In this document: positions 10,327 through 24,382 of the stretch, piece by piece
Numbering within the stretch: the stretch's first letter is position 1
Layout: the number at the start of each line of letters is the position of its first letter
Virus record (IMG/VR): IMGVR_UViG_2737471857_000022
DNA: 36,183 nt
From: a virus
Taxonomy: Duplodnaviria > Heunggongvirae > Uroviricota > Caudoviricetes
Strand: one strand, 5' to 3'
Translations under genes and position numbers: made by a program
The notes under the pieces: generated by a model
What the model saw: only the letters and a program-made list of their open reading frames with translations
What the model was told of the DNA's origin: nothing
Database searches by the model: none

Positions 10327-11835
10327 ATGTTTAATCTTTTTCGACGCAAAAAGGTGGTAGAAACTCCAGTTAAAACTAATCACCGCCAGCAACAAAAATT
10401 ATTCATCAACAAATCTGTAGAAAAATACCAGAATGACCTGAATAAACGAAGTTTAGGATTGGTGGGTGATCGCATTGATGGATCGCTTCAACAAGATACT
10501 ATCACAGGAACCTTCAATAAGGCTCTTAAATCGAACGCTAAACGCCTTTATGATCAGGGTCGTACTCTGGCCTTAAACACTGCTGTAGGCAGTCGCTACA
10601 CGCAATACATAACCGATATGGTGGTTGGTACTGGCCTAGATCCGAAACCATCTATGGTTAAATCAAACGGGAAACTTGATAGCGCACTGAATAAGCAGAT
10701 CGAGAATGCTTTCTGGAAGTGGGCGCAGAATGCTAAACGCTTCTCTCGTAATGGTCGCTTTAACTTCCGTGAATTGCTGGTAATGGCTGAACGTGAGCGC
10801 GTTATGGGTGGTGAGTGCTTCATCGTTTTAACTAAAGAAAACAATGAGTTAAACGTTTCTATCCTGTCTGCTGATAAGTGCGACTGGACGCTCAACCGTG
10901 AAGTTAGTAAAGACCGCGCGATATATCAAGGTGTGGAGTATGACGTAGAGACAATGCGCCCTGTTGCATACTGGTTTCGTAAAATCAACCTACTGACTCA
11001 GACCTACACTGGTGATAACTATCGCGTAGATGCTTCTCAAGTATGCCATTATTATCAACCACTTGCGGCTGAATCTCTTCGTGGTGTGACTGACTTCCTG
11101 CCAGTGATTAAGGACATTGCTCATCAAGACGCATTCCGCGAAGCAGTTTTAATACAGAAGAGAATCGCAGCTACAGCAATGGGTTTTATCGAGCGCCCGA
11201 AAGATTCCGGTGACGATTTTGATACTGGTGAAGATGAAGACCAATATCAAGCGCCGGACGTTATTCACGATTTCGCGCCCGGTACTATTCAGGAACTGCC
11301 GGAAGGGGCAACGATCAAGAGTATTCAGAGCAACCAAAGCGGCGACGACTTTAACAGCTTTAACAGTGGAATGTTCACGAGTATCGCAATGGGATTGGGC
11401 GTGTTCAATCAGGGCTTAACTGGTGATACTAGCCAGATCAACTACAGCGCTGCACGCTTTGGGGAACTACTTCAACGTAACCGCGTTAAAGCACTGCAAA
11501 ACAAATTAATTGAAACGGTGGTATTGCCAATTTTCGAAGCGTATCTGCGTCATTATTCCGCGCGTGGTGTTGTTCCGATTCGTATTACTGCAATCCCGCA
11601 TGTTATCGATAATACAACTATTATTAGACCACGTTTCGAGTCCGTTGACGTCAATAAAGATGTGAGCGCCGATATTGCTTTAATTGATAAAGGACTTAAA
11701 TCACGTACTGCTGTTATTCTTGAACGTGGTGATGATCCTGAAAAAGTATTCTCAGAGATTCAAGCCGAAAAAAGCGCACTAAATATTATCGTTAATGGCG
11801 AGAGCAAGGATAACCCTTCTCAAGCCGATCCCTAA
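10327..11835 (+). CDS. portal protein, lambda gpB-like (502 aa)
   Basis: Position after terminase, size, acidic Asp/Glu-rich segment; TAAGGGGTAAA SD. Confidence 0.8.
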   Translation: MFNLFRRKKVVETPVKTNHRQQQKLFINKSVEKYQNDLNKRSLGLVGDRIDGSLQQDTITGTFNKALKSNAKRLYDQGRTLALNTAVGSRYTQYITDMVVGTGLDPKPSMVKSNGKLDSALNKQIENAFWKWAQNAKRFSRNGRFNFRELLVMAERERVMGGECFIVLTKENNELNVSILSADKCDWTLNREVSKDRAIYQGVEYDVETMRPVAYWFRKINLLTQTYTGDNYRVDASQVCHYYQPLAAESLRGVTDFLPVIKDIAHQDAFREAVLIQKRIAATAMGFIERPKDSGDDFDTGEDEDQYQAPDVIHDFAPGTIQELPEGATIKSIQSNQSGDDFNSFNSGMFTSIAMGLGVFNQGLTGDTSQINYSAARFGELLQRNRVKALQNKLIETVVLPIFEAYLRHYSARGVVPIRITAIPHVIDNTTIIRPRFESVDVNKDVSADIALIDKGLKSRTAVILERGDDPEKVFSEIQAEKSALNIIVNGESKDNPSQADP

Positions 11836-11880: not shown

Positions 11881-13884
11881 ATGCTTAAATTTCGCCGCGA
11901 TCTTAACGGTTACGGTGGAGTTATTAACGAAGGGCATAACGATCAATACGAATTTGAAATTGCTTTCTCAAGTACACAGCCTTATCAGCGCCAATTTTGG
12001 GATGAGCAAAATCAAGAAATGGTGGTATTAGATGAAATTCTGGTACATACACCGGAAGCGGTTGATCTGTCTCGTCTGAATAATAACGCTCCGTTGCTGT
12101 TCAATCATAATTTCGATAATCACATTGGTGTAGTCTGCGACGCTCGAATCGATGCGGATAACGTAGGCCGTGCTCTGGTTAAATTCTCTAAGCATGGCAC
12201 TTTGGCTAATGATATTCGCAATAAAGTCATTGAAGGTACGATGGAAAAAATTTCTGTCGGTTATGACATTAAAGAATATCACATCGACTACACCAAAGGG
12301 CAATTGATTGTTACTAAGTGGGCGCCTTTTGAAATTTCATTTGTGACGGTTCCCGCAGACGATTCGGTCGGTTTAAATCGCTCTCTAAATACTATCACAG
12401 TTAATTTGGGGGCTAAACGCGATATGACTAAAGAACAAATCGAAGAAATCAAAGAAGAACAAGAACCCGCTCAGGTTGAAGAAACTCCGGTAGAAGAAAA
12501 TAAAGAACCGAAAGTTGAAGAAACTCAAGAGCGCCAAGTTGAAGAGAATAAAGAAGATGAAAATCTCGAAGACGGAAAAGACGCTAAACATCCTGAAAGT
12601 GTTGATGATGATAGTTCAACTGTTCGGGAAACAGAAGAAGTAAAAGAAGAACGTGAAGCCGCTCCGGTTGAAGAAGAAAAAACCGAAGAAGTGGCTGAAC
12701 GTTCCGAAGAAGACGAAGAAGAAATCCGAGCAATCGCGCGGGAACTAAATATTGACGACGAAGAATTGAAACGCGCATTGGCAATTAAAGACATGACGCC
12801 GGAAGCATTCCGCACTAAGGCACTAAATAATCTCGTCAATGCTCAACGTAATAACGAACAAATTAAGGACTCTAAAATGGAAAAAACTTTTGACCTGAAC
12901 AACGTAATTCGCTCTCTGGTAGATGGTGAAGCTCTGGGTGCTAACGAAGCCGAGTTTTCTGCAATGGCTGCTACTGCAACTATGCAGCGTGGTCGTGCTG
13001 CTCGCGGTGGCTCTGTATTCGTTCCGACTGCTGCTATGCGTGCTGCTGCTGATGGTAACACCAAAGCTACTCTGACCGCTGTAACCGACGAAAAACTGCT
13101 GAATGATTCCTATGTAGCGATGCTGTTGCCGGAATCCGTTCTGGGTCGTCTTGGTGTGAAAGTCCTGTCTGGTCTGACTTCGCCGACCGCTATTCCTAAA
13201 ATGACCGCTTCCAGCGTTGAATCTTTCGGCTTCGTTGATGAAAACGGTGCTGCGCCGGAAGGTAAAGCTGAATTTGCAAACGTGAAAATGGCTCCTAAGA
13301 CGTTTGCTGGTGGGAATCCGATCAGCAGAGCTAGCCTCAAGACCGTACCCGGCATCGCTACCCTGATCACTGATCACATTAACCAGGCTGTTCGCATCAA
13401 ACTGGAACAACTGATTCTGTCCGACAAAGAAAATGCTCGTGGTCCGGCTGGTGTGATTAAACAACTGGTAGATGCTGGTCGCGTAGAGAAGAAAGCTGCT
13501 TTCTCTTATAAAGACTTCCTGAAAGAAATTGCTAAACTGACCGACGCTGGCGTTCCTGCTCAGGCGATCAAGTTTGCAATGAGCGGTGCAACTGCTGCTG
13601 AACTGGAATCTACCCTGAAAGATAACGGTGTTTCCGGTTATATCATCGAAAACGGTAAACTGGCTGGTTACGACGTAGTTACTTCTGGTGTTATTCCGGT
13701 AGACCACATCGTTCTGGGATCGTTCGACGCTATTACCATCGGTGAATGGGGTGGTCTGGAACTTGACATTGATGACACTACCTACCGCGCACAGTCTGCT
13801 ATCGTTCCGCGTATCTGGGTAGATCTGGATTACGTTGTAACCCAGCCGGAAGCGCTGAAAGTTCTTCACATCTCCGCTGAATGA
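11881..13884 (+). CDS. single polypeptide fusing prohead protease (HK97 gp4-like), acidic scaffold/delta linker and HK97-fold major capsid protein (667 aa)
   Basis: N-terminal 170 aa carry protease-like motifs (LLFNHNFDNHIG, ISVGYDIKEY, EISFVTVPADD). Residues about 180-300 are Glu/Lys-rich low complexity. The C-terminal 340 aa are capsid-like. Confidence 0.8.
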   Translation: MLKFRRDLNGYGGVINEGHNDQYEFEIAFSSTQPYQRQFWDEQNQEMVVLDEILVHTPEAVDLSRLNNNAPLLFNHNFDNHIGVVCDARIDADNVGRALVKFSKHGTLANDIRNKVIEGTMEKISVGYDIKEYHIDYTKGQLIVTKWAPFEISFVTVPADDSVGLNRSLNTITVNLGAKRDMTKEQIEEIKEEQEPAQVEETPVEENKEPKVEETQERQVEENKEDENLEDGKDAKHPESVDDDSSTVRETEEVKEEREAAPVEEEKTEEVAERSEEDEEEIRAIARELNIDDEELKRALAIKDMTPEAFRTKALNNLVNAQRNNEQIKDSKMEKTFDLNNVIRSLVDGEALGANEAEFSAMAATATMQRGRAARGGSVFVPTAAMRAAADGNTKATLTAVTDEKLLNDSYVAMLLPESVLGRLGVKVLSGLTSPTAIPKMTASSVESFGFVDENGAAPEGKAEFANVKMAPKTFAGGNPISRASLKTVPGIATLITDHINQAVRIKLEQLILSDKENARGPAGVIKQLVDAGRVEKKAAFSYKDFLKEIAKLTDAGVPAQAIKFAMSGATAAELESTLKDNGVSGYIIENGKLAGYDVVTSGVIPVDHIVLGSFDAITIGEWGGLELDIDDTTYRAQSAIVPRIWVDLDYVVTQPEALKVLHISAE

Positions 13885-14018: not shown

Positions 14019-14046
14019 AGCCCTGCCTAACGGTGGGGCTTTTTTG
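14019..14046 (+). terminator. terminator-like hairpin plus T6 after the capsid gene
   Basis: AGCCC...GGGGCT followed by TTTTTTG. Confidence 0.5.
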
Positions 14047-14075: not shown

Positions 14076-14366
14076 ATGTTCAAATTATCAGAATCACAAT
14101 TATCAAGAATGTTTAAGAGTGCTCCTGTATTTTCGGTGGAAGGTGGTAAATCAATTCGTGCTTATCATGAAATTACTACTACCGACGAACAAGGGGTAAT
14201 GACAGAAACAGAATTTCTATTTTGTCGTGAGGGAGACTTAAAGCAAGGTGATATTGTCATTGTAGAAAATCAGCGTTTCAAAGTTCAATACGTTAAGCGC
14301 AATGGTGACAATACTTGTGATTGCTTTATCACTTTAGCAGGGGGTACACATGCTCGCTACCGTTAA
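14076..14366 (+). CDS. head-tail joining protein, lambda FII-like (96 aa)
   Basis: C-terminal LKQGDIVIVENQRFKVQYVKRNGDNTCDCFITLAG resembles lambda FII (LRRGDTLTIGEENFWVDRVSPDDGGSCHLWLG, recalled). Confidence 0.55.
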   Translation: MFKLSESQLSRMFKSAPVFSVEGGKSIRAYHEITTTDEQGVMTETEFLFCREGDLKQGDIVIVENQRFKVQYVKRNGDNTCDCFITLAGGTHARYR

Positions 14367-14772
14367 TAATATGCCGAGACTGAAAATCAAACGCGCCTTG
14401 CAAGATATTATCGAACAAGATTTAGGTCTGGCTTTAAACGTAGAACAAACTCAGCAAGGCTTTAGTGATGACGTGGTTTGTTGGATTACTGGCATGAATG
14501 AAACTTATACGCGTGTTCGTGGTGGTAATGCAATGCAAGCTGAATGCGTTATCGAAATGCAGTTATATTCTCAGATTCATGAAACGAAAATTCATGAGGG
14601 TATTTGCCAGATAATCCAGATTCAGCCAGATAACCCACGATTTAAAGATTTGGGCTTCTCTATTTCAGATATCACTCCAGTAGCTTCTAATACCGATTAT
14701 GACGATGATTCTAGTGATGGGGGTATCGTTGGGACACTTAGCCTTAAATTTTCTTATCTAGCGCGTTTTTAA
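14350..14772 (+). CDS. tail terminator, lambda gpU-like (140 aa)
   Basis: GGGGG SD; DVVCWITGMNETYT...QAECVIEMQL and C-terminal DYDDDSSDG resemble gpU (recalled). Confidence 0.5.
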   Translation: MLATVNNMPRLKIKRALQDIIEQDLGLALNVEQTQQGFSDDVVCWITGMNETYTRVRGGNAMQAECVIEMQLYSQIHETKIHEGICQIIQIQPDNPRFKDLGFSISDITPVASNTDYDDDSSDGGIVGTLSLKFSYLARF

Positions 14773-14781: not shown

Positions 14782-15615
14782 ATGAATATTACACAAGATA
14801 ACTTAGACATTTTCACGGGGTCGCATGTTGAAGTCTCCGTGTCTACTATGGTGGATAACCAGCCGGACTTTTTCGATCCTGCATTTAGTCCTATCGAGAA
14901 CATCGCAGCATTCCCGACGATAACCGAATCCACAGAGATCCAGACGTTAGAAGAGTATGATCAGGACGCTACTGGTAAACTTGCTGGCTATCGTAAACTT
15001 GAATCAACTACGTTAGTAGTAAACCGTGTTCTGGATGACGAACATCAAGACATGTTGATGAAAGCGGTGAATGATAAAACTCCTTTACGCTTTCGTATGT
15101 TCTATGTTGTGAACTCTGGTTACAGTGCTGCTAACACAGGTTACTACGTCATTTTTGACGCTTATGTCTCGTCACATAAAACAAAATCCGGTGATAACAA
15201 AGTTACTACAATCGAGTTTAAATTAGAACCTGATGGCGGGATTCTAGATCGCGGTATTGCTACCGAAGGCCGGATCTTACGTCAGGGTGATTTTGGTTTG
15301 GGTGCTGGTGTAAATCCATTCACGGGTCCGATTGATAGCGAAGCATTAGCCGGAAACCGTTTCGTAACCTATCAGGGATCGAGCGCATCTAACCCATTTA
15401 GTGCTGATACTTCACTAATTCACGTTCAACCTAATGAAGATGGTGGATGGCAATTAACTTGCACCGCTTCTGGTGCACCACGTTTACGAGTTCGCACAGT
15501 CCAGAAAGACGGTAATTCTGGATGGGTGAAATTGTATTCCACAGAAGAAAAACCGACACCAGCCGAGATTGAAGCCGTTTCTATCCATGACCGGATCGAT
15601 TTCGGGGAATACTGA
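14782..15615 (+). CDS. tail-tube paralogue with about 110 aa C-terminal extension (277 aa); candidate fibre-attachment collar/ring protein
   Basis: N-terminal 165 aa align with CDS 20097..20567 (DIFTGS/DIFSGG, IAAFP/CAAFP, KLAGY.../KLVGR...). C-terminus has KPTPAEIEAVS, also found in the fibre. Confidence 0.6.
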   Translation: MNITQDNLDIFTGSHVEVSVSTMVDNQPDFFDPAFSPIENIAAFPTITESTEIQTLEEYDQDATGKLAGYRKLESTTLVVNRVLDDEHQDMLMKAVNDKTPLRFRMFYVVNSGYSAANTGYYVIFDAYVSSHKTKSGDNKVTTIEFKLEPDGGILDRGIATEGRILRQGDFGLGAGVNPFTGPIDSEALAGNRFVTYQGSSASNPFSADTSLIHVQPNEDGGWQLTCTASGAPRLRVRTVQKDGNSGWVKLYSTEEKPTPAEIEAVSIHDRIDFGEY

Positions 15616-15640
15616 TTGCTTCTCTAAATAAAACATGACG

Positions 15641-15672
15641 GGGAGGTTAACGCCTCCCTTATTCCTGTTTTA
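15641..15672 (+). terminator. rho-independent terminator (GGGAGG-TTAACG-CCTCCC plus T-rich tract)
   Basis: Perfect 6-bp stem followed by TTATTCCTGTTTT. Confidence 0.55.
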
Positions 15673-15686
15673 TGTGAGGTGATTAG

Positions 15687-18600
15687 ATGCAATCAATCCA
15701 ATTTAAACGAACTAATGTTTCTGGCAAAAAACCAACGCCGGAACAATTACAGGTCGGTGAGGTAGCAATCAACCTTAAAGACCATGTTATTTTTACCAAA
15801 GACCGAGATCATGAAGTAGTTCAAATCTCTGTTTCTCCTGAAACTCACGCGGCACTAGAATCTAAAGTTGATGCTAACAAACAAGAACTAGATAGCACAA
15901 TTGCAGTAAATGACCGCAATATTCACGCTAAAGTAGATGAAATTAAACAAACTACTGATGCAACCATCGCAGCAAATCACGCAGAAATTAACAATAAAGT
16001 TGATGTAATTAAACGCGAAACCGACGCGACAATCGAGGCCAATAAAAATAAAGCTGCTTCCGACCTTGCTGGTGTTAAAGCTGAATTGTCGGATACCATC
16101 AACGCTAATAAAAATGCGGCTGCTGTAGCAACTCAGGAACTGGACACCCGCATCAATAAAAAAGTTGATGATATTAAATCCCGCACCGATGCAACCATCG
16201 CAAGCAATGACAAAGCAATCAATGACAAGGTTGATTTGATTAAGGCAGAAACTGACCGCACTATCGCAGCAAATAAAGTCTATGCGGAAAATCAGTTAAC
16301 TGACACCTACAATAACCTTACTGGTGTGATTGCAGCCAATAAGCAAGAGGCAGCGGATAACGTCGCAGCATTAACCCGTGATGTTGAAGCCAAAAATACA
16401 GCAATTCATAGCAAAATTGACAACAACAAGGTTTACACTGATTCTGAATTGGCACGCTTAGAAAGCCGTATTGATGCAGCCGATGGATCTGCTGATGGCA
16501 AGTACATCAAAAAACACGTAAACACTTATACTGATGGTTATTTGCTGTCTAAGACCGCAAACTATTTTGATGATCCAAGTGCGCGTAATCTTGATTACTT
16601 TGGTGCATTCCGTATGAATGACCTAGCGGGTCATATTGCTTTAGCGTTACATGTTCCGCATCCATCCGGCGTTAATCATGCTCGTGGTTTTGAGTTCACT
16701 TATGGGTCTAATCCACATGCTACGGTAAGAACATACGGCTATGATGAATTGGGTCATTTGGCATATTCTCACCGCATGTATCATGAAGGTGATAAACCTA
16801 CTCCGGCTGAAATTGGCGCATATTCGAAAGCAGAAATTGACCGCCTGTTCCAGAAGACGCTTAATTTTGGTATCGAGGGCGGTTGGTTTAAACTAGGCAC
16901 TTTGACAATGCCACAGCAACACGGTCGCACCGCTAAGATCCGTTTGGTTGGTGGTAACGGTTATAACGTCGGGATGAATGGACAAGCCAATATTATCGAA
17001 TTGGTGATTCGATGCGGCAACAATAGCCCGAAAGGTGTTGTATTCAATGCTTATTATAGCATCTGGTATCACGAACAACATTTTTGTGCAATTCCTACCG
17101 ATGGTGATAATTACGATCTTTACGCTTACTATGGTGCACATACAGGATTTGTTTTAGCAGAATATCAAGTTTCTTCCGGTGGTGTTTCTTTAAACCTGTT
17201 GGATACTCCTGAATACCTGGGCGGTGAAAAACCTGTTGCAGATGAAATTTTTGATGCTCTTAACATTTCATCGTTCAATAACTTTAGCAACCGTGGAACG
17301 TTAAATTTTGGCGGAAACCATCAAGGCCAATATGATATTGAGCATTTGAACGAACAACAAACAAATGCTAAAAAGATGTTGCGTCGCTTCCGTAGTTCTG
17401 CTCCTGCCACTATCTGGCATGAAACTGTTGATGATAACGCATATCGTCTTGCTACTGGATACGAAGATACAAATCAGGAATTATTACTGACAGCAACAAC
17501 CGGATTACATATCAAGAAATTAACATTGGATGGCGGTGTTGGTGGAAATTCTGGTATTGATATTCGTCGAGGACCAAATGAAGCAAGCCATTTTAATTTC
17601 ATGGATTATCGCACTGGTCAAGATGTTCGTAATGGCTGGTTTGGTTTTGGTGACGGTCAGACGAAAGATTTTATTTGGTGGAACGATAACGGTCAAAACT
17701 CAATCAACCTGATCGAAAACGGTGAATTGCATATTACTGGTGGTAAAGGCCAGAAAATTGTAATGAATAGCGAAGTTGCATTGTCTGAAAATGCTCGTTT
17801 GGCTGTCAAAGGCGGTAACTATGGTTTGATTTTACGCAATGATGGTTCTGGTTTCCATATTCTTACTACCAATTTAAAAGATTCTTTTGGTAGTTGGAAT
17901 AATCGCAGACCATTCAGTTATGATTTTGCGGACGGTGGATTATATTTAGGTGGTACTGAAACCGCTCGGTGTTTACATCTGGGGATTGATGGTAGCACTC
18001 GTCTTGAAGACAACCTGTTCTTTAAAGCTGGTTCTCGTCAATCTATGGACTATATGGAACTCGTCCATTGGGGGGCAAGCAATACAGGTCGAAATAACGT
18101 TTTAAGTCTTCGTGACTCAAAAGGATTTTTCGCAGAATTTGAAAGATTGGGTGATAATACCATTAAAAACTCCTTCTTTGGTAAACTTAAAATTAATCGC
18201 GGATCTGATGCAATTATCATGAATGCCGAAAGTGGTGATTCTTCTGTATATTTGTTGGGTACGTGTGCTGATAACAATAATTGGTATATCGGTAAAGGCG
18301 GCGCTGATAATGGATTGGCGTTCTATAGTTATGCTACTAATGCTGCTGTAAACATTACAAACGCGGGGGATATCGCTCTAAGTCCAAAAGGCATCGAAAT
18401 GACTCATGTCAATAACGTTCGATTCTATGTTCATGGTGAACGTTGGACTGCTAGCCAATCTGGAGGTTGGAACGACCAGTGGGGATTAGAAGCGCCGATA
18501 TTTGTCGATCATGGTTATGTTTCACCGGACTGTTATTACCCAATTATTAAAGGAAGAAGTTTAATCACCAATCAAGGGTATACAACTGCCGTCGATTTTG

Positions 18601-19097
18601 GTCTGCGTCGTGTTCCTAATGCATGGGGACAAGCAATTATTCGCGTTGGATCTGCGGAGGCATCGCCAGCGGCTGGTCATCCTCAAGCTGTATTCGAGTT
18701 CCATCATGATGGTACTTTTTACTGTCCTGGTAATGGTAACTTTAACGATGTTTATATTCGTTCCGATCGTCGTCTGAAAATTAATGTTGAAGATTACGAA
18801 GAAAATGCGGTGGATAAGGTAAATAAACTCAAAGTTAAAACCTACGATAAAGTTAAATCTCTTAATGACCGAGAAGTTATAGGTCATGAGATTGGTATTA
18901 TCGCACAGGATTTACAAGAGGTATTACCGGAAGCTGTTAAAACCGCAAAAATTGGTGGTTTTGATAACCCAGAAGAAATTTTAACAATTTCAAACTCCGC
19001 AGTGAACGCGCTTTTAATTAAAGCGGTCCAAGAAATGAGCGAAGAAAATAAACTTCTTCGTGAACGTCTTGCTGCAATTGAAGCTAAATTAGGGTAA
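15687..19097 (+). CDS. side (L-shaped-type) tail fibre with C-terminal intramolecular chaperone domain, T5 pb1-like (1136 aa)
   Basis: Four about 22-aa repeats (xIxxKVDxIKxxTDATIxAN) at aa 77-200. C-terminal 110 aa (YIRS/DRRLK...GIIAQDLQEVLPEAVK...NSAVNALLIKAV) resemble the S74-type chaperone of T5 pb1 and endosialidases (recalled). Confidence 0.85.
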   Translation: MQSIQFKRTNVSGKKPTPEQLQVGEVAINLKDHVIFTKDRDHEVVQISVSPETHAALESKVDANKQELDSTIAVNDRNIHAKVDEIKQTTDATIAANHAEINNKVDVIKRETDATIEANKNKAASDLAGVKAELSDTINANKNAAAVATQELDTRINKKVDDIKSRTDATIASNDKAINDKVDLIKAETDRTIAANKVYAENQLTDTYNNLTGVIAANKQEAADNVAALTRDVEAKNTAIHSKIDNNKVYTDSELARLESRIDAADGSADGKYIKKHVNTYTDGYLLSKTANYFDDPSARNLDYFGAFRMNDLAGHIALALHVPHPSGVNHARGFEFTYGSNPHATVRTYGYDELGHLAYSHRMYHEGDKPTPAEIGAYSKAEIDRLFQKTLNFGIEGGWFKLGTLTMPQQHGRTAKIRLVGGNGYNVGMNGQANIIELVIRCGNNSPKGVVFNAYYSIWYHEQHFCAIPTDGDNYDLYAYYGAHTGFVLAEYQVSSGGVSLNLLDTPEYLGGEKPVADEIFDALNISSFNNFSNRGTLNFGGNHQGQYDIEHLNEQQTNAKKMLRRFRSSAPATIWHETVDDNAYRLATGYEDTNQELLLTATTGLHIKKLTLDGGVGGNSGIDIRRGPNEASHFNFMDYRTGQDVRNGWFGFGDGQTKDFIWWNDNGQNSINLIENGELHITGGKGQKIVMNSEVALSENARLAVKGGNYGLILRNDGSGFHILTTNLKDSFGSWNNRRPFSYDFADGGLYLGGTETARCLHLGIDGSTRLEDNLFFKAGSRQSMDYMELVHWGASNTGRNNVLSLRDSKGFFAEFERLGDNTIKNSFFGKLKINRGSDAIIMNAESGDSSVYLLGTCADNNNWYIGKGGADNGLAFYSYATNAAVNITNAGDIALSPKGIEMTHVNNVRFYVHGERWTASQSGGWNDQWGLEAPIFVDHGYVSPDCYYPIIKGRSLITNQGYTTAVDFGLRRVPNAWGQAIIRVGSAEASPAAGHPQAVFEFHHDGTFYCPGNGNFNDVYIRSDRRLKINVEDYEENAVDKVNKLKVKTYDKVKSLNDREVIGHEIGIIAQDLQEVLPEAVKTAKIGGFDNPEEILTISNSAVNALLIKAVQEMSEENKLLRERLAAIEAKLG

Positions 19098-19103
19098 TTG
19101 GAA

Positions 19104-19123
19104 AGCGGGGAGAAATCTCCGCT
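19104..19123 (+). other. stem-loop after the fibre gene
   Basis: AGCGGGGA-GAAA-TCTCCGCT, one mismatch, no T tract. Confidence 0.3.
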
Positions 19124-19135
19124 AAGGATTCTTAT

Positions 19136-19432
19136 ATGGGATATTGGGTAAGTAGTGAAATTAATACTAAAATCGATGCTTTAAAATGGCATGTATTTGA
19201 TATTCCTAACGGCTATGGTACTGCTCGTGCTGGTGTCGCTGTAATGCGTCATAATGCTGGTGGTGGGTGGTCTGATGCACATATTAACGTAGATGGTTTG
19301 ACCGTTGCTCGTCGTCGTGGTGGGACCAATTGGGGATCTACTATAAATTCGTTTGTTCCTGCTGGCTGCACCGTCTCCTTTGGTTTAGGGGGTGAAGGTG
19401 GTGTTGAATATTTTAAATTCATGGAGTTTTAA
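19136..19432 (+). CDS. small fibre-module protein, paralogue A (98 aa)
   Basis: AAGGA SD; shares W..(F/Y)FDIPNG(W/Y), Gly-rich middle and TVSF...YFKF with the next two ORFs. Confidence 0.65.
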   Translation: MGYWVSSEINTKIDALKWHVFDIPNGYGTARAGVAVMRHNAGGGWSDAHINVDGLTVARRRGGTNWGSTINSFVPAGCTVSFGLGGEGGVEYFKFMEF

Positions 19433-19434
19433 TT

Positions 19435-19740
19435 ATGGCTGGATGGATAAATCAAAGAATGTCAAACGCTATTAGTATTTGGGCTAATGGTGGATATTTT
19501 GATATCCCCAACGGCTGGGTTACTGATTCATGCGGAATTGTTTTTGCTCATATGGAAGCCATTAACGGTGCTGGTGATCTTGATTCTGAATTGGCTGTAA
19601 ATGGATTGATTGAATCAGGTCATCATGCTGGTGATGCTGGGAGTTGGGGCGCTAGTTCTTTAGTTGGCGCTGGTGCTACCGTTAGCTTTACATTGGGTAA
19701 AGGTAGTTTGCATTATTTTAAATTCAGGAGAATGCACTAA
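19435..19740 (+). CDS. small fibre-module protein, paralogue B (101 aa)
   Basis: Start 2 nt after the stop of A; same motif set. Confidence 0.65.
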   Translation: MAGWINQRMSNAISIWANGGYFDIPNGWVTDSCGIVFAHMEAINGAGDLDSELAVNGLIESGHHAGDAGSWGASSLVGAGATVSFTLGKGSLHYFKFRRMH

Positions 19741-20042
19741 TGGCATTTTGGGTAGATGGCGCTTTGGGGAATAGGGCGGGTAAAGCAAATCAAGGATGGT
19801 TTGATATTCCTAACGGTTGGACAGCCGACGCTTTCGGGACTATTTCATTCTGTGCTCATTCTTCCGGTGGTGGCGGTGGTGACTCTGAATTGCTTATTCA
19901 TGGTTTGTGTGTTTCTGGAAGCCATAAGGGTCATGATTGGGGACAGATTCATTCTTGTATTGCACCGCAAGGGGCGGTAATTACCGTTAGCACAAATAGG
20001 GGGATCGCTCATCTTCGTTATAGACGTTTGAGCAACCGCTAA
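19740..20042 (+). CDS. small fibre-module protein, paralogue C (100 aa)
   Basis: TAATG stop/start overlap with B; same motif set, more diverged C-terminus. Confidence 0.6.
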   Translation: MAFWVDGALGNRAGKANQGWFDIPNGWTADAFGTISFCAHSSGGGGGDSELLIHGLCVSGSHKGHDWGQIHSCIAPQGAVITVSTNRGIAHLRYRRLSNR

Positions 20043-20096
20043 ATAAATAGAATTACGGGTATGTGCCCTATTGTTTAAAATAGAAGGAAAAGAATA

Positions 20097-20567
20097 ATGA
20101 CTACTAAATTTGATATTTTTTCTGGTGGCCTCGTTGGTCTGTTTCTGCATGAAGAAGTAACTAACACCGATCTTGACAGTGAAAGCTATCTGGAAATTCC
20201 AGAATGTGCGGCTTTCCCGGAAACTGGTGTAGAACGTTCTACTATCGATGTTCCTAACTTCGGTGGTCCGTATAACCGTAAGCTGGTTGGTCGTATGTCT
20301 GTACCGGATATCGAACTTTCGATCAACTACATGCCGGGTAACGAAGTACACGAAAAACTGATTAAAGCAACCGAAGACGGTAAGCGCGTACAGCTTAAAA
20401 TTGCTTACTACATCGACGCTACGAAAAAATCTGGTGTGCACATCGCTTATAACGGCTTCCTGTCTAAAACTACCATGACGGGCGGTGAAGATGCTGTAGT
20501 AGGTCGTTCTTTCACCTTTGTAGTAGATGGTGCTCCGGTTAAACAAGCTGTTTTCCAGAAAGTCTAA
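20097..20567 (+). CDS. major tail tube protein, lambda gpV N-domain-like (156 aa)
   Basis: ELSINYMPGNEVHEKLIKATEDG resembles gpV [23 protein letters not shown] (recalled). Sits directly ahead of the chaperone pair and tape measure; strong terminator downstream. Confidence 0.7.
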   Translation: MTTKFDIFSGGLVGLFLHEEVTNTDLDSESYLEIPECAAFPETGVERSTIDVPNFGGPYNRKLVGRMSVPDIELSINYMPGNEVHEKLIKATEDGKRVQLKIAYYIDATKKSGVHIAYNGFLSKTTMTGGEDAVVGRSFTFVVDGAPVKQAVFQKV

Positions 20568-20575: not shown

Positions 20576-20603
20576 AGCCATCCTTCGGGGTGGCTTTTTT
20601 GTT
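20576..20603 (+). terminator. rho-independent terminator (AGCCATCC-TTCG-GGGTGGCT plus TTTTTTG)
   Basis: 8-bp stem, UUCG loop, T6. Confidence 0.75.
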
Positions 20604-20649: not shown

Positions 20650-20958
20650 ATGAATATTAATGAAATGTTAGCCGCACTCTCTCCGAAACGCGAATCTCTG
20701 ACCATCGGTGGATTTACTTTCTATGCTCGCCCTATGTCAGTAAAAGAATTTAATGAACATGTTTTCAATACCGATAAAGAAGACCGTGATGAACGTTCTA
20801 TTCTTCGTTGTATTGAAGATGAAGACGGTAAACCAGTATTTGAATCTATTGAACAAGTTAAGGCACTGTATACTAACGTCCGCAGTGAATTAATCGGTTT
20901 AGTTGCTCAAGCGTCATTGATGCAAGATCCGGCGGTAATTGAAAACGAGGTAAAGTAA
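20650..20958 (+). CDS. tail assembly chaperone, gpG position (102 aa)
   Basis: AGAGGA SD; acidic small protein directly ahead of the tape measure. Confidence 0.55.
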   Translation: MNINEMLAALSPKRESLTIGGFTFYARPMSVKEFNEHVFNTDKEDRDERSILRCIEDEDGKPVFESIEQVKALYTNVRSELIGLVAQASLMQDPAVIENEVK

Positions 20959-20987
20959 ACCCGCTTCTGAATTTCTATTTCCGGCAA

Positions 20988-21329
20988 ATGATGAGATCGG
21001 GGCTTAGTAAAGATGAAATGGATAATATGCCAATCACTCTGTTTTGGAAATTATACATTTTCGACACCTACTTAGAACCACAAAGCCCCGCGTTTCATGA
21101 TATGCAGAATGCGATGTTGCAATATTCCATGTATATGACTTCGCAAGGAATGACACGCGAAACTGCACGCAAACTCAAGCCTAGCCAATTCCAATTAATT
21201 AGAGAAGAAAAACTCTTTAAAACTAAAGAAGAACTGGAAGAAATTTCACGCAAGAAAGAAGAAGAACGTAAAGCGGCAATGCTGAACATGTTTGATCCAT
21301 CTTTGCTTGAGAAACTCAGAAGCGGTTAA
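20988..21329 (+). CDS. tail assembly chaperone, gpT position (113 aa); may be made as a G-T fusion by -1 frameshift
   Basis: The frame of this ORF is open back to 20943 and overlaps the last 5 codons of the G-position ORF in the -1 frame. Confidence 0.5.
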   Translation: MMRSGLSKDEMDNMPITLFWKLYIFDTYLEPQSPAFHDMQNAMLQYSMYMTSQGMTRETARKLKPSQFQLIREEKLFKTKEELEEISRKKEEERKAAMLNMFDPSLLEKLRSG

Positions 21330-21340: not shown

Positions 21341-23770
21341 ATGACAAGACATATAGTAACAATAGAAGGGGATAATAAAGGTCTAAGGAGAAGTACCAAT
21401 GAAGCCGCCGACCTTCTCGATAGTTTGTCTGAAAAGGCAAGTAATATTGATTTTGGTGGTGGCTTATCTGGTCTGACTGGATCTCTTCGTGGGATCGCTG
21501 GCTCTGCTGGTTTGGCTGCTGGTGGTATCGGCTTAGTTGCGACCGCAGTGGTTGCAGCCGCTAAAGCTGGCGCGGAATACGTTAAACAATATTCAGAAGT
21601 ATCTAAGGCGACCGGACTCTCGATTGAATCCCTTCAAAGACTGGAAAAGGAATTTTCTGGTACTGGCCTAACAGTTGAAAAATTTGGCGATATCAACAAA
21701 GACACCTTAGATAAAATGGGTGATGCGTGGGCTAATGGTGGTGGTATTGCTGATGACTTAGAATCGGTTGGTCTTAAGTTAGAAAACTATGCTCACTTCA
21801 TGACAGATCCGCAAGGTGGTATGAAAGCGGCGATCCAAGTGTTCTATGACATGAAGAAAGCCGGAAAATCAATGGCTGAAATCAAGTTCATGATGGAATC
21901 TTTAGCCAGTGATTCAAGCCATATGACCAGCCAGCTTGAGAAATATAATAGTGCTCAAGAGGCGATGATCGCTATTCAGAATCAATCTGTTAACGTCACC
22001 GAAGAAAACGCTAAAAAATATGATAAATTTTCTCAAAATATCAATAAGCTGGAAAATAACCTGAAAGGTGTCGGCATGACCATTACTGGTCCTTTGGTTG
22101 ATAGCTTAAACTGGCTATTTGACTGGTTTAATATTGATTGGGAAAAGAGTTCTCTATTCAGGGCATTAGATCGACTGAATAAAGAAGGCAAGACCGCAAC
22201 TGGCGGTATTCTTAACGCCAACCATAAAGACGCTCAAAAAATTATTGACAAGTACAATAAAGAAAAGCGTTGGAATAATCTGGCAGATTGGGAAAAGGCC
22301 GCGATACGTGGTGCTGGTGTCGACCCTCGTACTGCTGGCTTTGATGTTGAAGGATTTAAGAAACGTTTTGGTGATTCTTATAAGAAAAATGGCTCTCTGA
22401 TTGTTGTCGATAACGGGGAACATCTAACTCGCAAGGCAGATCCTAACCGTGATTTGACTATACCAAATAAACCAGTAAGACCAGAATCATTGGGTAAGTC
22501 TGGCAATGAGAAGAAAGCCGAAGAAGAAGCACGCAAGAAAGCGGAAGAGGCAGCTAAAAAGGCTAAGGAAGCCGCAGAAAAAGCACAGAAAGAACGTGAG
22601 GATGCAATCAAGCGTCTGAATGCACTTGATGTTAAATTGCAAGGGCAGGTCGCCGCGTCTATTGCTTCTCAGAACAAGCAGTTAGAAGCCAGCTTGAAAG
22701 ATTTGGACACTGCTTTAGATCTGGGCTTAATCTCTCAGCAAGACGCAGCCGCGAAACGCCAATCCTTAATCGATCAGAATACTGAAAACGTATACAAAAT
22801 GGTTTTAGGTGCTGATCCGGTTGATGCTTTGAATGCCTTAACACAATTGCAACAAATAAGGGACAACGAGCTAGAAAGCCATAAACGGTTACTTGATGGT
22901 AAAGCTATCTCCTACGAAGAATATATGCGTCGTGTGAACGATACCGAGCAAAACTATTCTCAGATTGAAAATTCTTTACAGGGAATGGATGGTTATAAAA
23001 CCAATCAATTAACTAGTGGTTATGATTATCAAGACTCAAATAATCCGTTTGCTAAATTTAATGCAATCGATAAAGAGAAATCGGAAGCGGAACAAGATCA
23101 TAAGACCGATAAACTCAAGATTGATGGGATCACCGATCCGGCTAAACGGATGGAAGCATTAGAAAAACTCAATGAAAACCATCAAAAACGAATGGCTGCA
23201 ATTGAGAAGAAATATGCTGATGCTCGTCAGTCAATAGCTGATGATATGTATGGCGGTTTTGCTGCTGCAATGACTCTCTTCGGGCAGGAAAACACTAAAG
23301 CAATGCAGATGGCTTTCACTGCTCATAAAGCATTCTCCATTGGACAAGCGACGGTGAACATGTGGACGGCTGCTACCGATGCATGGAACGATCCAACCAA
23401 CGTAACCACAGGTCAAAAAATCGCTGCTGCTGCATTGGCTGTTTCTCAGAACATGGGGAGCATCGCAAACATCAAGTCTACTAACGTTAGCGGTATGGCT
23501 CATGATGGTATTGATAACATCCCTCGTGAGGGTACATGGCTGCTTGATAAGGGTGAACGAGTAGTTGATCAGCGTACTAACGGTGATTTGAAAGACTTCT
23601 TATCTGCTCAAAAATCAGGCGGTGGTAACTCTCAGCCGATTGAAGTTAACGCACCTTTGAACATTAACGGCAACGTTAATAGCTCAGACAAGATGGTCAT
23701 GGATGCTATCAAACGTCATGCTAAGTTAGTTGCTCAGGCGGTAGAAGACGCACAGCGCCGTAAGATGTAA
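21341..23770 (+). CDS. tail tape measure protein (809 aa)
   Basis: Gly/Ala-rich hydrophobic segment near the N-terminus, long coiled-coil Lys/Glu-rich regions, position after G/T; TAAAGGGGTAAT SD. Confidence 0.85.
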   Translation: MTRHIVTIEGDNKGLRRSTNEAADLLDSLSEKASNIDFGGGLSGLTGSLRGIAGSAGLAAGGIGLVATAVVAAAKAGAEYVKQYSEVSKATGLSIESLQRLEKEFSGTGLTVEKFGDINKDTLDKMGDAWANGGGIADDLESVGLKLENYAHFMTDPQGGMKAAIQVFYDMKKAGKSMAEIKFMMESLASDSSHMTSQLEKYNSAQEAMIAIQNQSVNVTEENAKKYDKFSQNINKLENNLKGVGMTITGPLVDSLNWLFDWFNIDWEKSSLFRALDRLNKEGKTATGGILNANHKDAQKIIDKYNKEKRWNNLADWEKAAIRGAGVDPRTAGFDVEGFKKRFGDSYKKNGSLIVVDNGEHLTRKADPNRDLTIPNKPVRPESLGKSGNEKKAEEEARKKAEEAAKKAKEAAEKAQKEREDAIKRLNALDVKLQGQVAASIASQNKQLEASLKDLDTALDLGLISQQDAAAKRQSLIDQNTENVYKMVLGADPVDALNALTQLQQIRDNELESHKRLLDGKAISYEEYMRRVNDTEQNYSQIENSLQGMDGYKTNQLTSGYDYQDSNNPFAKFNAIDKEKSEAEQDHKTDKLKIDGITDPAKRMEALEKLNENHQKRMAAIEKKYADARQSIADDMYGGFAAAMTLFGQENTKAMQMAFTAHKAFSIGQATVNMWTAATDAWNDPTNVTTGQKIAAAALAVSQNMGSIANIKSTNVSGMAHDGIDNIPREGTWLLDKGERVVDQRTNGDLKDFLSAQKSGGGNSQPIEVNAPLNINGNVNSSDKMVMDAIKRHAKLVAQAVEDAQRRKM

Positions 23771-23821
23771 TTAAAAGCCCTCATAGTGATAAATAATCAT
23801 AAAACTATGGGGGCTTTTTCT

Positions 23822-24382
23822 ATGTTCAAATCCAAAAATATTAAAATCACAGATTTTACTCTTAAATCAAAACAACCTTTCTTCAAGGCGCAATCTATTT
23901 CTGGTAAGTTCCAGCGTCGCTTTACTGGTATTCATTTTTATGAAGCAGAATTTACAGCTAATTTCATGGCTCAGGATATTAACGAAGTAAAAGAATTTGT
24001 AGCACGTCACCTTTTTGGTCGTCCTTTTAGTGTGCCACTGTCTTACTTTTCAAAATATACAGGTGATGTACGCCAGATGGTTACGGCTGCTGCTGGTACT
24101 GCTCGCGGTGGGCGTAAGGTGAGAATCTCCAACTTCACCGGAACACTGAAAGCGGGAACTATCATCCAGTTTGAGAACCACAAGAAAATCTACACGATCA
24201 CCGAAGATGTGAAATCAGGTGGTGAAATGAAACTCTTCCCTAACTTGCGTCAGAACGTCCTAGCGGGTGAGGTGATCAAGTATCAGAACGTAGAAGGTGA
24301 ATTTGTTCTCAAAACTGAAAATATCGATTGGAAGATCGCTCAGATTGGCAAGATGAAATTCGAATTAGTGGAGAATGTATAA
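23822..24382 (+). CDS. minor tail / distal tail protein (gpM or Dit position, about 186 aa from ATG 23822)
   Basis: First gene after the tape measure; GGGGG SD 8 nt upstream of 23822; the ORF is open from 23786. Confidence 0.5.
   Translation: MFKSKNIKITDFTLKSKQPFFKAQSISGKFQRRFTGIHFYEAEFTANFMAQDINEVKEFVARHLFGRPFSVPLSYFSKYTGDVRQMVTAAAGTARGGRKVRISNFTGTLKAGTIIQFENHKKIYTITEDVKSGGEMKLFPNLRQNVLAGEVIKYQNVEGEFVLKTENIDWKIAQIGKMKFELVENV

Follow-up and report, generated by a model that had tools for sequence, protein, structure and literature searches.

The 277-residue protein encoded at 14782..15615 of the window (the whole 36,183-nucleotide stretch of viral DNA analysed here, IMG/VR record IMGVR_UViG_2737471857_000022) is, most likely, what holds a receptor-binding fibre of the T4 type on the lambda-like tail of an E. 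coli prophage. The block of genes to which it belongs, located between a 140-residue gene and the tail tube gene, probably serves a clade of small temperate siphophages as their native side-fibre module, combining an anchor that is a paralogue of the tube protein with an exchangeable T-even distal half-fibre. We found no description in the literature of a tube-paralogue anchor with a gp36-type fibre joint.

Gene content of the block

The gene order proposed by an earlier sequence-only reading was confirmed: the gene for the 277-residue protein is followed by those for a 1136-residue fibre and three paralogues of ~100 residues and then by the tube gene, with each ORF found at the coordinates given by that reading. 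The features discussed here are as follows.

14076..14366, + strand: FII-like head-tail joining protein, 96 residues (weak; Pfam Phage_attach, phrog_161)
14350..14772, + strand: 140-residue protein in the tail-terminator/tail-completion position (position, size, weak gpU match)
14782..15615, + strand: putative fibre anchor, 277 residues, with a tube-fold domain and, after a flexible linker, a small beta domain and a gp36-like C-terminal tail
14803..15267, + strand: predicted tail-tube (gpV-like) fold, anchor residues 8–162 (tube profile, AlphaFold2, Foldseek)
15349..15546, + strand: predicted second small beta domain, anchor residues ~190–255 (AlphaFold2 pLDDT; conserved in fused fibres)
15514..15612, + strand: gp36-type C-terminal joint, anchor residues 245–277 (…KPTPAEIEAVSIHDRIDFGEY-COOH)
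15640..15659, + strand: stem-loop between the anchor and fibre genes, weakly terminator-like (8-bp stem, 5 GC pairs, poor T tract)
15687..19097, + strand: gp37-type side fibre, 1136 residues (Gp34_trimer, Peptidase_S74, phrog_1699)
15687..15839, + strand: fibre residues 1–51, gp37-type N-terminal joint motif IQFKRT..GKKP....L..GE.AINL.DH.I.TKD
16550..20058, + strand: segment exchanged with T4-like Krischvirus phages, distal fibre and three small genes (blastn, megablast)
18762..18941, + strand: S74 intramolecular chaperone domain, fibre residues 1026–1085 (Pfam PF13884, E-value 5.6e-15)
19136..19432, + strand: small paralogue 1, 98 residues, C1q/TNF-like jelly-roll
19435..19740, + strand: small paralogue 2, 101 residues, 33–37% identical to paralogue 1
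19740..20042, + strand: small paralogue 3, 100 residues, 22–25% identical to paralogue 1
20097..20567, + strand: major tail tube protein, 156 residues (phrog_158, Phage_TTP_12, tube profile)
20576..20595, + strand: terminator-like hairpin after the tube gene (8-bp stem, then TTTTTTG)
20650–20958 and 20988–21329, + strand: G-like and T-like tail assembly chaperone genes (Phage_TAC_13, phrog_344, Phage_tail_T)

The genes of the block are real and chance ORFs are excluded, because the set recurs in 55 of 5426 complete E. coli genomes, where NCBI's PGAP pipeline calls its members as CDSs, and in 38 IMG/VR contigs. Upstream of the block, the 96-residue protein matched Pfam Phage_attach/FII (1.9e-4) at 22.4 bits, short of the curated cut-off of 26 bits for this family, and phrog_161 "head closure Hc1" with an E-value of 0.023; its gene is kept upstream of the module in relatives. 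Sequence searches of Pfam, PHROG, NCBIfam and the PDB with the 140-residue protein returned no match, and an hhalign comparison of its family with lambda gpU gave a weak one (0.049, 31% over 75 collinear columns). An equivalent gene of 131–140 residues lies upstream of the anchor in the related loci DCP80, L008 and L128, and the "U-like" label, drawn from position, size and the gpU match, is unproven.

Downstream of the 156-residue tube gene lie the G-like and T-like genes (Phage_TAC_13, 1.9e-4; phrog_344, 1.3e-7; Phage_tail_T, 2.3e-4) and then the tape-measure genes. The T-like gene lies in the -1 frame of G, which is open from 20943; a search for a canonical slippery heptamer found none. The earlier description of the tail operon as lambda-ordered proved loose at the tail tip, where the genes are of the DTP-pb9, Gp84_N/DUF2163 and DUF6950 kinds (gene-transfer-agent/phiJL001/T5-like) together with a lambda J C-terminal domain. 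A pb9-like Dit candidate is encoded separately after the tape-measure gene (23786–24382), and the window contains no fibre gene downstream of the J-like gene. The capsid gene likewise has a hairpin resembling the tube gene's after its end (14019–14040).

Relationship of the anchor to the tube protein

Both the 277-residue and the 156-residue proteins matched phrog_158 "major tail protein" (1.9e-10 over residues 11–154, and 1.1e-19, respectively), and the latter also matched Phage_TTP_12 (1.2e-4), its gene immediately preceding those for the chaperones and the tape measure. Compared directly by BlastP the two proteins matched each other with an E-value of 3e-4. An hmmsearch with a profile built from ten tube proteins of 149–167 residues, the window's own 156-residue protein being left out, aligned anchor residues 8–162 to profile positions 3–153 with an E-value of 4.4e-34, and matched the 156-residue protein with one of 2.6e-53. 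In the AlphaFold2 model of the anchor (pLDDT 78.8) the confident tube-fold part spans residues 15–163, and Foldseek matched this model to the tube proteins of lambda (gpV), 80alpha, YDC107 and monocin (1.3e-7, probability 1.00, 148–156 columns, with TM scores of 0.64–0.68 normalised to the target). Model confidence is low in the Gly-rich linker (pLDDT 53–68, residues 164–190) and in the final residues, and high in between (86–91, residues 190–255), in a small beta domain that is kept in the fused fibres described below, whose alignments reach anchor residue ~260. By these profile and model comparisons the 277-residue protein is a paralogue of the tube protein that this phage itself encodes, with a single tube domain and a C-terminal extension, as the sequence-only reading had supposed.

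A probable T-even-type joint between anchor and fibre

Over the terminal 28 residues of gp36 of the Krischvirus phage KFS-EC the anchor's end showed 50% identity, both proteins being aligned to their final residue, and hhalign of the anchor family profile against gp36 gave a probability of 89% (2.3e-6) over the last 33 columns. The anchor also matched phrog_16472, the Krischvirus gp36 family, across its last 100 positions, and the homologue P0082 matched the same stretch with an E-value of 7e-20. The anchor homologues all end in IDFGE[FY] or IDLGTF, and T4 gp36 ends in QDFGYY. Among the matches listed from 50,697 phage records, those reaching the last residue were all to connector/fibre genes of T4-like genomes, several of them annotated as gp36. 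As a short peptide the anchor's C-terminus gave weak database-wide E-values (0.1–0.3), and the gp36 similarity is confined to the last ~33–100 residues, which include the common fibre motif KPTxAExGA; we found no solved structure of gp36 or of the gp36 joint for comparison. The trimeric gp36 of T4 attaches to gp37 at the latter's N-terminal region (PMC3004832). The N-terminus of the window's fibre was 41% identical to that of KFS-EC gp37 (7e-10), and its joint motif is common to the gp37 proteins of T4 and G37-3 and to the fibres of DCP80, VTB96775v, EC24 and L128. In all 38 related loci holding that part of the fibre gene the motif is 68–100% conserved, whatever the remaining fibre is.

Exchange of the distal fibre with T4-like phages

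The matches of the fibre to protein families were to Gp34_trimer (9e-13), Peptidase_S74 (5.6e-15) and phrog_1699 "long tail fiber distal subunit" (5e-126), and its residues 1019–1128 matched a gp37 fragment of phage S16 (6f45_A). Residues 283–1136 were 85% identical to residues 69–920 of gp37 of the T4-like phage KFS-EC. At the nucleotide level, blastn matched 16550–19403 to KFS-EC (86.4% identity) and 18717–20058 to vB_EcoM_G37-3 (94.8% identity), in which the segment comprises gp37 with the ORFs at the gp38 position and lies upstream of the holin gene t. G37-3 carries the same three small genes in unchanged order, and KFS-EC a collapsed version of them. The three proteins share 22–37% mutual identity, with the motifs W4 and FDIPNG common to paralogues 1 and 2, and all have a C1q/TNF fold in predicted models; their genes occupy the gp38 position, and the family was found only in prophages of E. 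coli, Shigella and Salmonella and in Krischvirus phages. Some relatives carry a true T2-type gp38. Among the E. coli prophage variants the first ~55–65 fibre codons are similar (to about window positions 15850–15881) and the genes diverge beyond. By these alignments only the fibre's distal two thirds and the three small genes were exchanged with T4-like phages.

Conservation of the layout and fused relatives

Every one of 38 close loci that reaches the tube gene has the order anchor, fibre, 0–4 small ORFs, tube. The anchor was matched by 128 cluster representatives, most of which are fibres of 446–1351 residues whose N-terminus aligns to the whole anchor (residues ~9–260). Among 79 more distant viral contigs, 69 encode upstream of the tube gene a single protein in which the tube domain is fused to a fibre; in 55 of these it lies within 300 nt of the tube gene. 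The fused fibres of 446–1351 residues carry S74, Phage_tail_C_2 or gp36 domains; the 837-residue fused protein of L008, e.g., was 28% identical to the anchor over 254 residues (2e-23). A separate anchor and fibre sharing this joint are found again in DCP80 (34% identity) and L128 (38%); DCP80 is the only "isolated phage" with the module, and its record contains it among scrambled T4-like genes. Nearly every locus that extends far enough has a separate short tube gene at the canonical position; in L128 the tube protein carries a C-terminal extension of its own. The recurrence of the order anchor–fibre–tube argues that it is the ancestral layout of the whole clade. The suggestion that the 277-residue protein is a dedicated attachment piece is strengthened by its gp36-like end, by the gp37-like N-terminus of the fibre and by the fusions of tube domain and fibre in relatives.

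Proposed assembly and alternative readings

We propose that the tube-fold domain of the anchor would be built into the tail as a ring continuing the tube, for which the tube-domain rings with peripheral domains formed by Milano gp25 and the R-pyocin Ripcord protein offer a precedent (PMC10811340). The C-terminal tails would exit the ring and assemble as trimers that receive the fibre N-terminus in a gp36/gp37-type joint, giving two fibres per hexameric ring. The fibre would fold using its own S74 chaperone, the three C1q/TNF-fold proteins in the gp38 position may act at its tip, and the parts distal to the joint would be exchangeable, allowing the prophage to swap receptor-binding ends with T4-like myophages. 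The step from a hexameric ring to trimeric fibres needs a 6-to-2x3 arrangement that has been shown for no tube protein, which counts against a ring. By analogy with lambda and T5 fibres, which attach near the tail tip, we favour the distal end of the tail as the position of the anchor; a head-proximal position is pointed to by gene order only (after the putative terminator, before the tube gene).

It is rather unlikely that the 277-residue protein is instead a peripheral adaptor outside the tube, bound to the tube exterior, the distal tail protein or the hub and holding the fibre there, in the manner of the collars built as 12-mers from Ur-lambda gpStf N-domains or T5 p132. While all solved side-fibre attachments of coliphage siphoviruses are collars around the tube/Dit junction (PMC12617516), a trimeric fibre (S74 domain) suits a 12-mer or 3-mer better than a 6-mer, and a separate pb9-like distal tail protein is encoded, the anchor domain matches true tube proteins over their full length (4.4e-34), its top structural matches are tube subunits and not collar or Ig-like proteins, it is paralogous to this phage's tube protein, and tube-fold domains of other tails form in-line rings (PMC10811340).

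We think it improbable that the protein is a second tube subunit co-polymerised along the tail as a decorated variant, in which case the adjacent fibre gene would be uninformative on attachment. C-terminal decorations are common in tube proteins, as in that of L128, and phrog_158, a 376-position profile under the label "major tail protein", is matched by both window proteins; however, the anchor's tail is gp36-like and the next gene begins with the gp37 joint motif, most relatives fuse the tube domain to a complete fibre (up to 1351 residues, with S74) that could hardly decorate every ring, and nearly every sufficiently long locus has its separate short tube gene. There is very little likelihood that a defective prophage retains the module as an unused relic, conserved in sequence with no assembled structure. 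In favour of a relic, no report describes an induced virion, IS elements occur in the region in some E. coli copies, and KFS-EC has the small genes in collapsed form; against it, the ORFs are intact in 38 loci at 54–100% protein identity and also in Salmonella, Providencia, Edwardsiella and Proteus homologues, the prophage has its complete structural operon together with a lysis gene and an integrase, and the fibre tips have been replaced repeatedly, which implies selection on function.

The sequence-only reading of the block as a T5-type side-fibre module inserted into, or grafted onto, a lambda-type tail operon can practically be set aside: although the side fibres and tube-fold protein recall T5 pb1 with p140 and p132, and the block is partly of foreign origin, tblastn against T5 records found no match to the anchor, the matched fibre families are all of the T4 long-tail-fibre type, T5 attaches its fibres by a separate 12-mer collar, p132, and not by a single-domain tube paralogue (PMC12617516), and the layout is clade-wide, covalent fusions included, with exchange limited to 16550–20058 and to T4-like Krischvirus partners.

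Comparison with known systems

The module resembles the distal half of the T-even long tail fibre, with its gp36–gp37 joint and gp38 tip (T4, RB49/Krischvirus): its anchor ends like gp36, its fibre begins like gp37 and shares 85% identity with the Krischvirus gp37 in shaft, tip and S74 chaperone, and its accessory genes take the position of gp38. Unlike gp36, however, the 277-residue protein is without the N-terminal gp36 domain (Pfam PF03903), the module is without gp35 or gp34, and the joint would sit on a tube-fold domain in a non-contractile tail, whereas that of T4 sits on a proximal half-fibre bound to the baseplate.

To our knowledge, none of the R-pyocin Ripcord, Milano gp25, T4 gp48/gp54 and T5 p140 proteins carries a fibre directly, and p140 has a duplicated tube domain where the anchor has a single one. 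They connect to baseplate wedges or a collar, unlike the anchor, and are encoded with baseplate genes, whereas the anchor gene is upstream of the tube gene. What the anchor would share with these proteins, among them the Milano baseplate centerpiece, is an N-terminal tube domain that continues the tube and a linker leading to a C-terminal part that reaches peripheral structures (PMC10811340).

Lambda gpV (Ig domain), whose full-length structure Foldseek aligns with the anchor model, and SPP1 gp17.1* likewise add to their tube fold a C-terminal appendage on the tail exterior. What they carry on many or all rings are small Ig/FN3 domains, whereas the appendage of the anchor would be a fibre joint or whole fibre from a separate paralogous gene. 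The Dit proteins of siphophages are similar to the anchor in having a tube-like N-terminal ring domain and C-terminal parts that hold receptor-binding proteins; unlike Dit, the anchor resembles tube proteins by sequence and precedes the tube gene, and the pb9-like Dit candidate is separate. In lambda the fibre genes stf and tfa are located after J. With the Ur-lambda gpStf, T5 p132 and DT57C LtfC systems the module shares exchangeable accessory side fibres on a non-contractile tail with a J-type central fibre, and the side-fibre tips of those siphophages are, as here, related to T4 gp37 (PMC12617516). Their attachments are 12-mer collars, and the lambda collar domain is a six-stranded beta sheet with a helix, not a tube fold (PMC12617516); the lambda and T5 collars wrap the gpV/gpM junction, whereas the anchor is a tube paralogue encoded before the tube gene.

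Genomic context of the fibre block

The window is a complete small temperate phage genome of 36 kb with a GC content of 41.7%. Its main genes, including those of the block under study (14782-20567), are as follows:

7842-9749, +, gpA-type large terminase
between the large terminase and the portal, +, 164-aa protein
10327-11835, +, lambda-family portal
11881-13884, +, 667-aa single ORF comprising an S78 prohead protease, a very acidic linker of ~150 residues and an HK97-type capsid
between the protease-capsid ORF and the block, +, two small head-tail genes
14782-15615, 277-aa protein, here called the anchor
15687-19097, 1136-aa fibre
19136-19432, 19435-19740 and 19740-20042, three small proteins of 98, 101 and 100 aa (paralogues 1 to 3)
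20097-20567, +, 156-aa tube protein, followed on the same strand by G-like and T-like chaperones and the tape measure (21341-23770)
tail tip genes, +, comprising a 198-aa pb9-like Dit candidate and genes of the DUF2163/Gp84_N and DUF6950 kinds
25501-29277, +, 1258-aa J-like protein with the lambda J C-terminal receptor-binding domain (Ig_GpJ_C, E 2e-35)
downstream of the structural genes, M15 endolysin and large serine recombinase

As the J-like protein ends in the lambda J receptor-binding domain, the phage pairs a lambda-type central fibre with T-even-type side fibres; the N-terminus of the same protein is a hydrophobic Ala/Gly-rich stretch. The sequence-only reading had named the two genes upstream of the block FII-like and U-like. 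A match for the former was present and was weak, and the latter label, given to a 140-aa protein (14350-14772), agrees with the tail-terminator position of its gene, with its size and with a weak hhalign match to lambda gpU (E 0.049, probability 1%), and with nothing further; this protein had close homologues only, and no match to it was identified in PDB, Pfam, PHROG or NCBIfam.

In E. coli UTAK-14 (NZ_CP168998), ycdX is interrupted by a near-identical prophage at about 3,153,500-3,190,000, and the prophage family was present in 55 of 5426 complete E. coli genomes. Homologues to the 277-aa protein were also identified in Shigella, Salmonella, Providencia, Edwardsiella and Proteus, and two scans of species-representative genome contigs identified no relative.

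Several other features of the genome were recorded. There is a strong terminator-like hairpin (14019-14040) 3' of the protease-capsid ORF, and the first ORF of the window (1-351) has a HicB-like antitoxin domain (5.7e-8). At 20943-20990, the T-like gene is in the -1 frame relative to the G-like gene, and this frame stays open through the last 16 nt of G, as a G-T frameshift would need; no canonical XXXYYYZ slippery heptamer was found, and the T-like ORF has its own ATG at 20988. The stretch from the endolysin to the serine recombinase (31313-33421; 32337-33827 in the compared locus L002) is variable cargo, which consists here of a CapR-domain ORF (31313-31906, - strand), a 134-aa ORF and a 379-aa ORF, and in UTAK-14 of a DEAD/DEAH helicase; it may be a defence or accessory hotspot.

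The 277-aa protein is a paralogue of the tube protein

The ORFs and coordinates of the block in the sequence-only reading were correct, and its suggestion that the 277-aa protein has a tube fold was borne out by both profile and Foldseek searches. The 277-aa and 156-aa proteins each matched phrog_158 'major tail protein' (1.9e-10 and 1.1e-19, respectively) and aligned to one another with an E-value of 3e-4. A profile of ten short tube proteins (149-167 residues, that of the window left out) matched anchor residues 8-162 over positions 3-153, which is the whole profile, with an E-value of 4.4e-34, a figure to be read in light of the fact that eight of the ten members were first found as matches of the anchor itself, the other two having been taken from relatives, where they occupy the canonical tube position. 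An AlphaFold2 model of the anchor built with 30 homologues (mean pLDDT 78.8) has four parts. The N-terminal tube domain is confident (pLDDT about 90) and is joined by a Gly-rich linker of low confidence (residues 164-190) to another small beta domain (residues ~190-255, pLDDT 86-91), after which comes a less confident tail. Foldseek matched the first domain to the tube proteins of lambda (gpV), 80alpha, YDC107 and monocin and to Hcp (targets 8k36_A, 7t2e_A, 9mfe_A and 6v8i; best E-value 1.3e-7, range 1e-7 to 1e-6; target-normalised TM 0.62-0.68). As the slot directly upstream of the G/T chaperone and tape-measure genes is taken by the 156-aa gene, with the 277-aa gene lying 4.5 kb upstream, the 277-aa protein is a paralogue and not the major tube protein.

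Other searches with the anchor gave no match in Pfam or NCBIfam, a single insignificant match among solved structures searched by sequence (7kjk collar spike, 0.27), and no significant match between its second domain and T4 gp34 (0.097). Existing annotations call the anchors 'hypothetical protein', 'phage tail protein' or 'major tail protein'.

The block had also been described as T5-type, a label we could not uphold: no T5 record matched the anchor, and the PHROG matches of the fibre were to T4-type or generic tail-fibre families. A tblastn search of 50,697 phage records with the anchor and with the N-domain of relatives in which the tube domain and fibre form one protein identified only the Escherichia phage DCP80. 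The T5 side-fibre system (pb1 fibre, p132 collar and p140 tube-like ring) was rejected as a counterpart, the anchor having given no match to a T5 record in this search. Among the ORFs examined, there was also no collar-like gene of the kind that would encode a separate 12-mer anchoring three fibres.

A probable gp36/gp37-type joint between anchor and fibre

The last 28 residues of the anchor, KLYSTEEKPTPAEIEAVSIHDRIDFGEY, are 50% identical to the final 28 residues of gp36 of KFS-EC, a T4-like Krischvirus phage, both alignments reaching the last residue. This similarity is short. The last 33 columns of a nine-member anchor family profile also aligned to the end of KFS-EC gp36 (probability 89%, E-value 2.3e-6). 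In addition, anchor residues 180-276 matched the last 100 positions of phrog_16472 (3e-3), the Krischvirus gp36 family which KFS-EC gp36 matches end to end, and a longer homologue, P0082, matched the same stretch at 7e-20. The C-terminal pattern of gp36, KPT.AE.GA…(I/Q)DFG..-COOH, is present in the anchor; every homologue inspected ended in IDFGE[FY] or IDLGTF, and T4 gp36 (NC_000866) ends in QDFGYY. When the 31-residue C-terminal peptide of the anchor was searched against 50,697 phage records, the listed matches reaching the last residue were all in T4-like genomes, where the genes are labelled tail connector, tail fibre or 'hinge connector of long tail fiber distal connector', at weak database-wide E-values (0.1-0.3).

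T4 and KFS-EC gp36 match phrog_1425 and phrog_16472 from residue 1, whereas the anchor matches only the final part of these two families, and no match to the gp36 N-terminal domain (Pfam PF03903; phrog_1425 positions 1-224) was identified in the 277-aa protein. Based on the absence of this domain, we regard the anchor as a protein with a gp36-type end and not as a gp36 orthologue.

The 1136-aa gene starts 71 nt after that of the anchor, and a gp37-type gene is likewise next in 38 related loci that include a fibre start. Fibre residues 1-51 are 41% identical to the N-terminus of KFS-EC gp37 (7e-10), and the motif IQFKR…G.KP…GE.AINL.D…TKD is common to the fibre N-terminus and to gp37 of T4 and of vB_EcoM_G37-3 (G37-3), a second Krischvirus phage. 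In T4, gp36 forms a trimer to which gp37 binds through its N-terminal region (PMC3004832); no T4 gp36 was found among solved structures. With a gp36-type end on the anchor and a gp37 motif on the fibre, the two neighbouring genes carry the two halves of a known fibre joint.

Fibre exchange with T4-like phages

The 1136-aa protein has the N-terminal joint motif, shaft domains and C-terminal S74 chaperone that characterize gp37. Searches identified a Gp34_trimer domain, a C-terminal Peptidase_S74 intramolecular chaperone and a match to phrog_1699 (5e-126), and residues 283-1136 are 85% identical to KFS-EC gp37. At the DNA level, 16550-19403 is 86.4% identical to KFS-EC and 18717-20058 is 94.8% identical to G37-3, the exchanged segment in Krischvirus phages consisting of gp37 and the ORFs between it and the holin gene, which is the gp38 position. 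E. coli prophage variants are alike through the anchor and the first ~55-65 fibre codons and carry different fibres past that point, so everything beyond the joint is exchangeable. For example, VTB96775v has a fibre together with a T2-type gp38 located 3' of the tube gene, EC24 has two fibres, one of them a 'head spike fibre' protein, and locus L047 has a fibre and a T2-type gp38 of 256 aa. Lambdoid and T-even phages have long been known to swap fibre tips (see also PMC12617516), and what is new here is the socket.

In E. coli VTB96775v (L003, 7412-7918), which represents a common prophage subgroup, PGAP annotates a 'receptor recognizing protein Gp38' between the tube gene and the G-like chaperone; with this gene 3' of the tube gene, fibre-related genes flank the tube gene on both sides.

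Three small paralogues at the gp38 position

The three ~100-aa proteins are true paralogues and had no family match in Pfam, PHROG or NCBIfam; their relatives were limited to E. coli, Shigella and Salmonella prophages and Krischvirus phages. Modelling predicts a compact jelly-roll of the C1q/TNF-like kind. A T2-type gp38 adhesin, with its polyglycine sandwich, shares only gene position with these proteins and was rejected on the C1q/TNF-like model and the missing family match. C1q/TNF domains work in threes, and in the C1q head the three chains are different paralogues. As a hypothesis only, the tandem arrangement of three paralogues, with its fixed order and its location where gp38 is otherwise encoded, would suit a cap in which one copy of each forms a heterotrimer on the tip of the trimeric fibre; homotrimers of each of the three, or a role like that of a lectin, would be just as plausible.

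In place of the three ORFs of the window (19136-20042) and of G37-3, KFS-EC has one ORF of 107 aa (L006, 5926-6249). Its sequence looks like paralogue 1 joined at a GG.GGD repeat to the middle of paralogue 3. The DNA homology to KFS-EC skips 19403-19866, a gap that points to a recombinational deletion within the three-gene set. GC skew reaches its maximum (+0.30) across the three small genes (19001-20000), far exceeding the rest of the window, which probably reflects their glycine-rich coding and foreign (Krischvirus-like) origin.

The layout is conserved across the clade

The sequence-only reading had taken the block for an insertion into a lambda-ordered tail operon, and comparison with relatives contradicts a one-off insertion. 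A full-library HMMER search with the 277-aa protein identified 128 cluster representatives, most of 446-1351 aa. The N-termini of the long representatives aligned to the whole query (residues ~9-260), and those scanned had an S74 chaperone or Phage_tail_C_2 at the end or a gp36 domain inside; these are complete fibres, in which the tube domain and second domain make up the first 250 residues. One such fused locus, L008 from IMG/VR, has the order terminase, 180 aa, portal, protease-capsid, 100 aa, 131 aa, 837-aa fused fibre, 153-aa tube protein, chaperones and tape measure. Among 79 further viral contigs recovered using an alignment of fused members, 69 had both genes, with the fused fibre upstream of the tube gene, and the gap was 300 nt or less in 55 of these.

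The same held for loci with separate anchor and fibre genes. The 38 close IMG/VR loci have the anchor, the fibre, zero to four small ORFs and the tube gene, which was true of every locus that reached the tube gene, and the first 60 fibre residues are 68-100% conserved across them. Split forms at greater distance have the same joint. That of the DCP80 record is 34% identical, and its anchor, of 698 aa, ends in …VIDFGLE; that of two metagenomic contigs, L128 and L129, is 38% identical, its 482-aa anchor ending in IDLGTF and its fibre starting MAKIKFKRSSVTGRKP…GEIGIN. As close, fused and distant split loci share one layout, we conclude that it is ancestral to the clade and did not arise by insertion into this genome.

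L128 (ENA ERZ27245307 k141_634) and L129 (JGI 3300012833) are 246 and 174 kb, respectively; each has an endonuclease VII gene just upstream of the terminase and a 251-aa tube protein with a C-terminal extension. On this evidence, a large-genome relative may carry the module. DCP80 (PQ671644.1; L001/L127) is the only GenBank phage record with the module and is filed under Straboviridae/Gaprivervirus. Its scrambled T4-like structural and replication genes (gp23 capsid, sheath, gp37, rIIA and a 164-aa terminase fragment) adjoin a full structural operon of siphovirus type; the record has the look of a chimera or a mixed assembly, and is doubtful as an isolated representative.

Proposed assembly and comparison with known systems

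Known tube-fold domains whose C-terminal parts point outwards, such as those of Milano gp25 and the R-pyocin Ripcord protein, assemble into rings in line with the tube (PMC10811340), and from this precedent we infer an anchor ring and fibre docking, all of the assembly proposed here being drawn from sequence, a monomer model and synteny. The anchor tube domain would form one ring of the tail, and the flexible 27-residue linker would let three adjacent chains join their second domains and gp36-type tails. Each anchor trimer would then hold one fibre, covalently or via the joint, giving two fibres per hexamer. The anchor gene lies between those of the putative terminator and the tube protein, an order that suggests a ring at the head-proximal end; by analogy, the distal end is suggested by function and by every coliphage case solved so far. 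The Ur-lambda collar is located where gpV meets gpM, and T5 carries a p132 collar of its own (PMC12617516).

Combining these points, we put forward one tentative and, as a whole, rather unlikely reading: a whole clade of small temperate siphophages would build side fibres on one in-line ring of a tube paralogue, the six C-terminal arms carrying two trimeric fibres by a link that would be covalent in most members and, in enterobacterial ones, a borrowed T4 gp36/gp37 joint that makes the prophage a plug-in socket for tips of T-even fibres, with a C1q-like heterotrimeric cap replacing gp38 as tip adhesin in the prophages and some Krischvirus phages.

How fast a phage adsorbs and which hosts it infects are set by its side fibres. 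The gp36/gp37-type joint accounts for the way in which a temperate siphophage found in ~1% of complete E. coli genomes and lytic T4-like phages have receptor-binding ends in common, at up to 86-95% DNA identity, which bears on host-range evolution and suggests that prophages are reservoirs of fibre tips for therapeutic phages to pick up. It also offers an engineering route in which the ~50-residue joint is retained and the remainder swapped. The anchor family could be renamed, and the three C1q-like genes are an uncharacterised alternative to gp38.

The coliphage siphovirus side-fibre attachments solved so far are of the collar type only, in lambda and T5 (PMC12617516). If true, anchoring by a tube paralogue would be a third solution and would re-use the tube fold as a structural socket in a non-contractile tail; we found no prior description of a fibre anchored in this way in the literature searched, which covered few subscription-journal papers. 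The fibre and joint of the module are shared with the distal half-fibre of T-even phages, the principle of its socket with baseplate proteins that have a tube domain, and its role in biology with the side fibres of lambda and T5. It is not a member of the T5 system, and its anchor is neither a gp36 orthologue nor the major tube protein.
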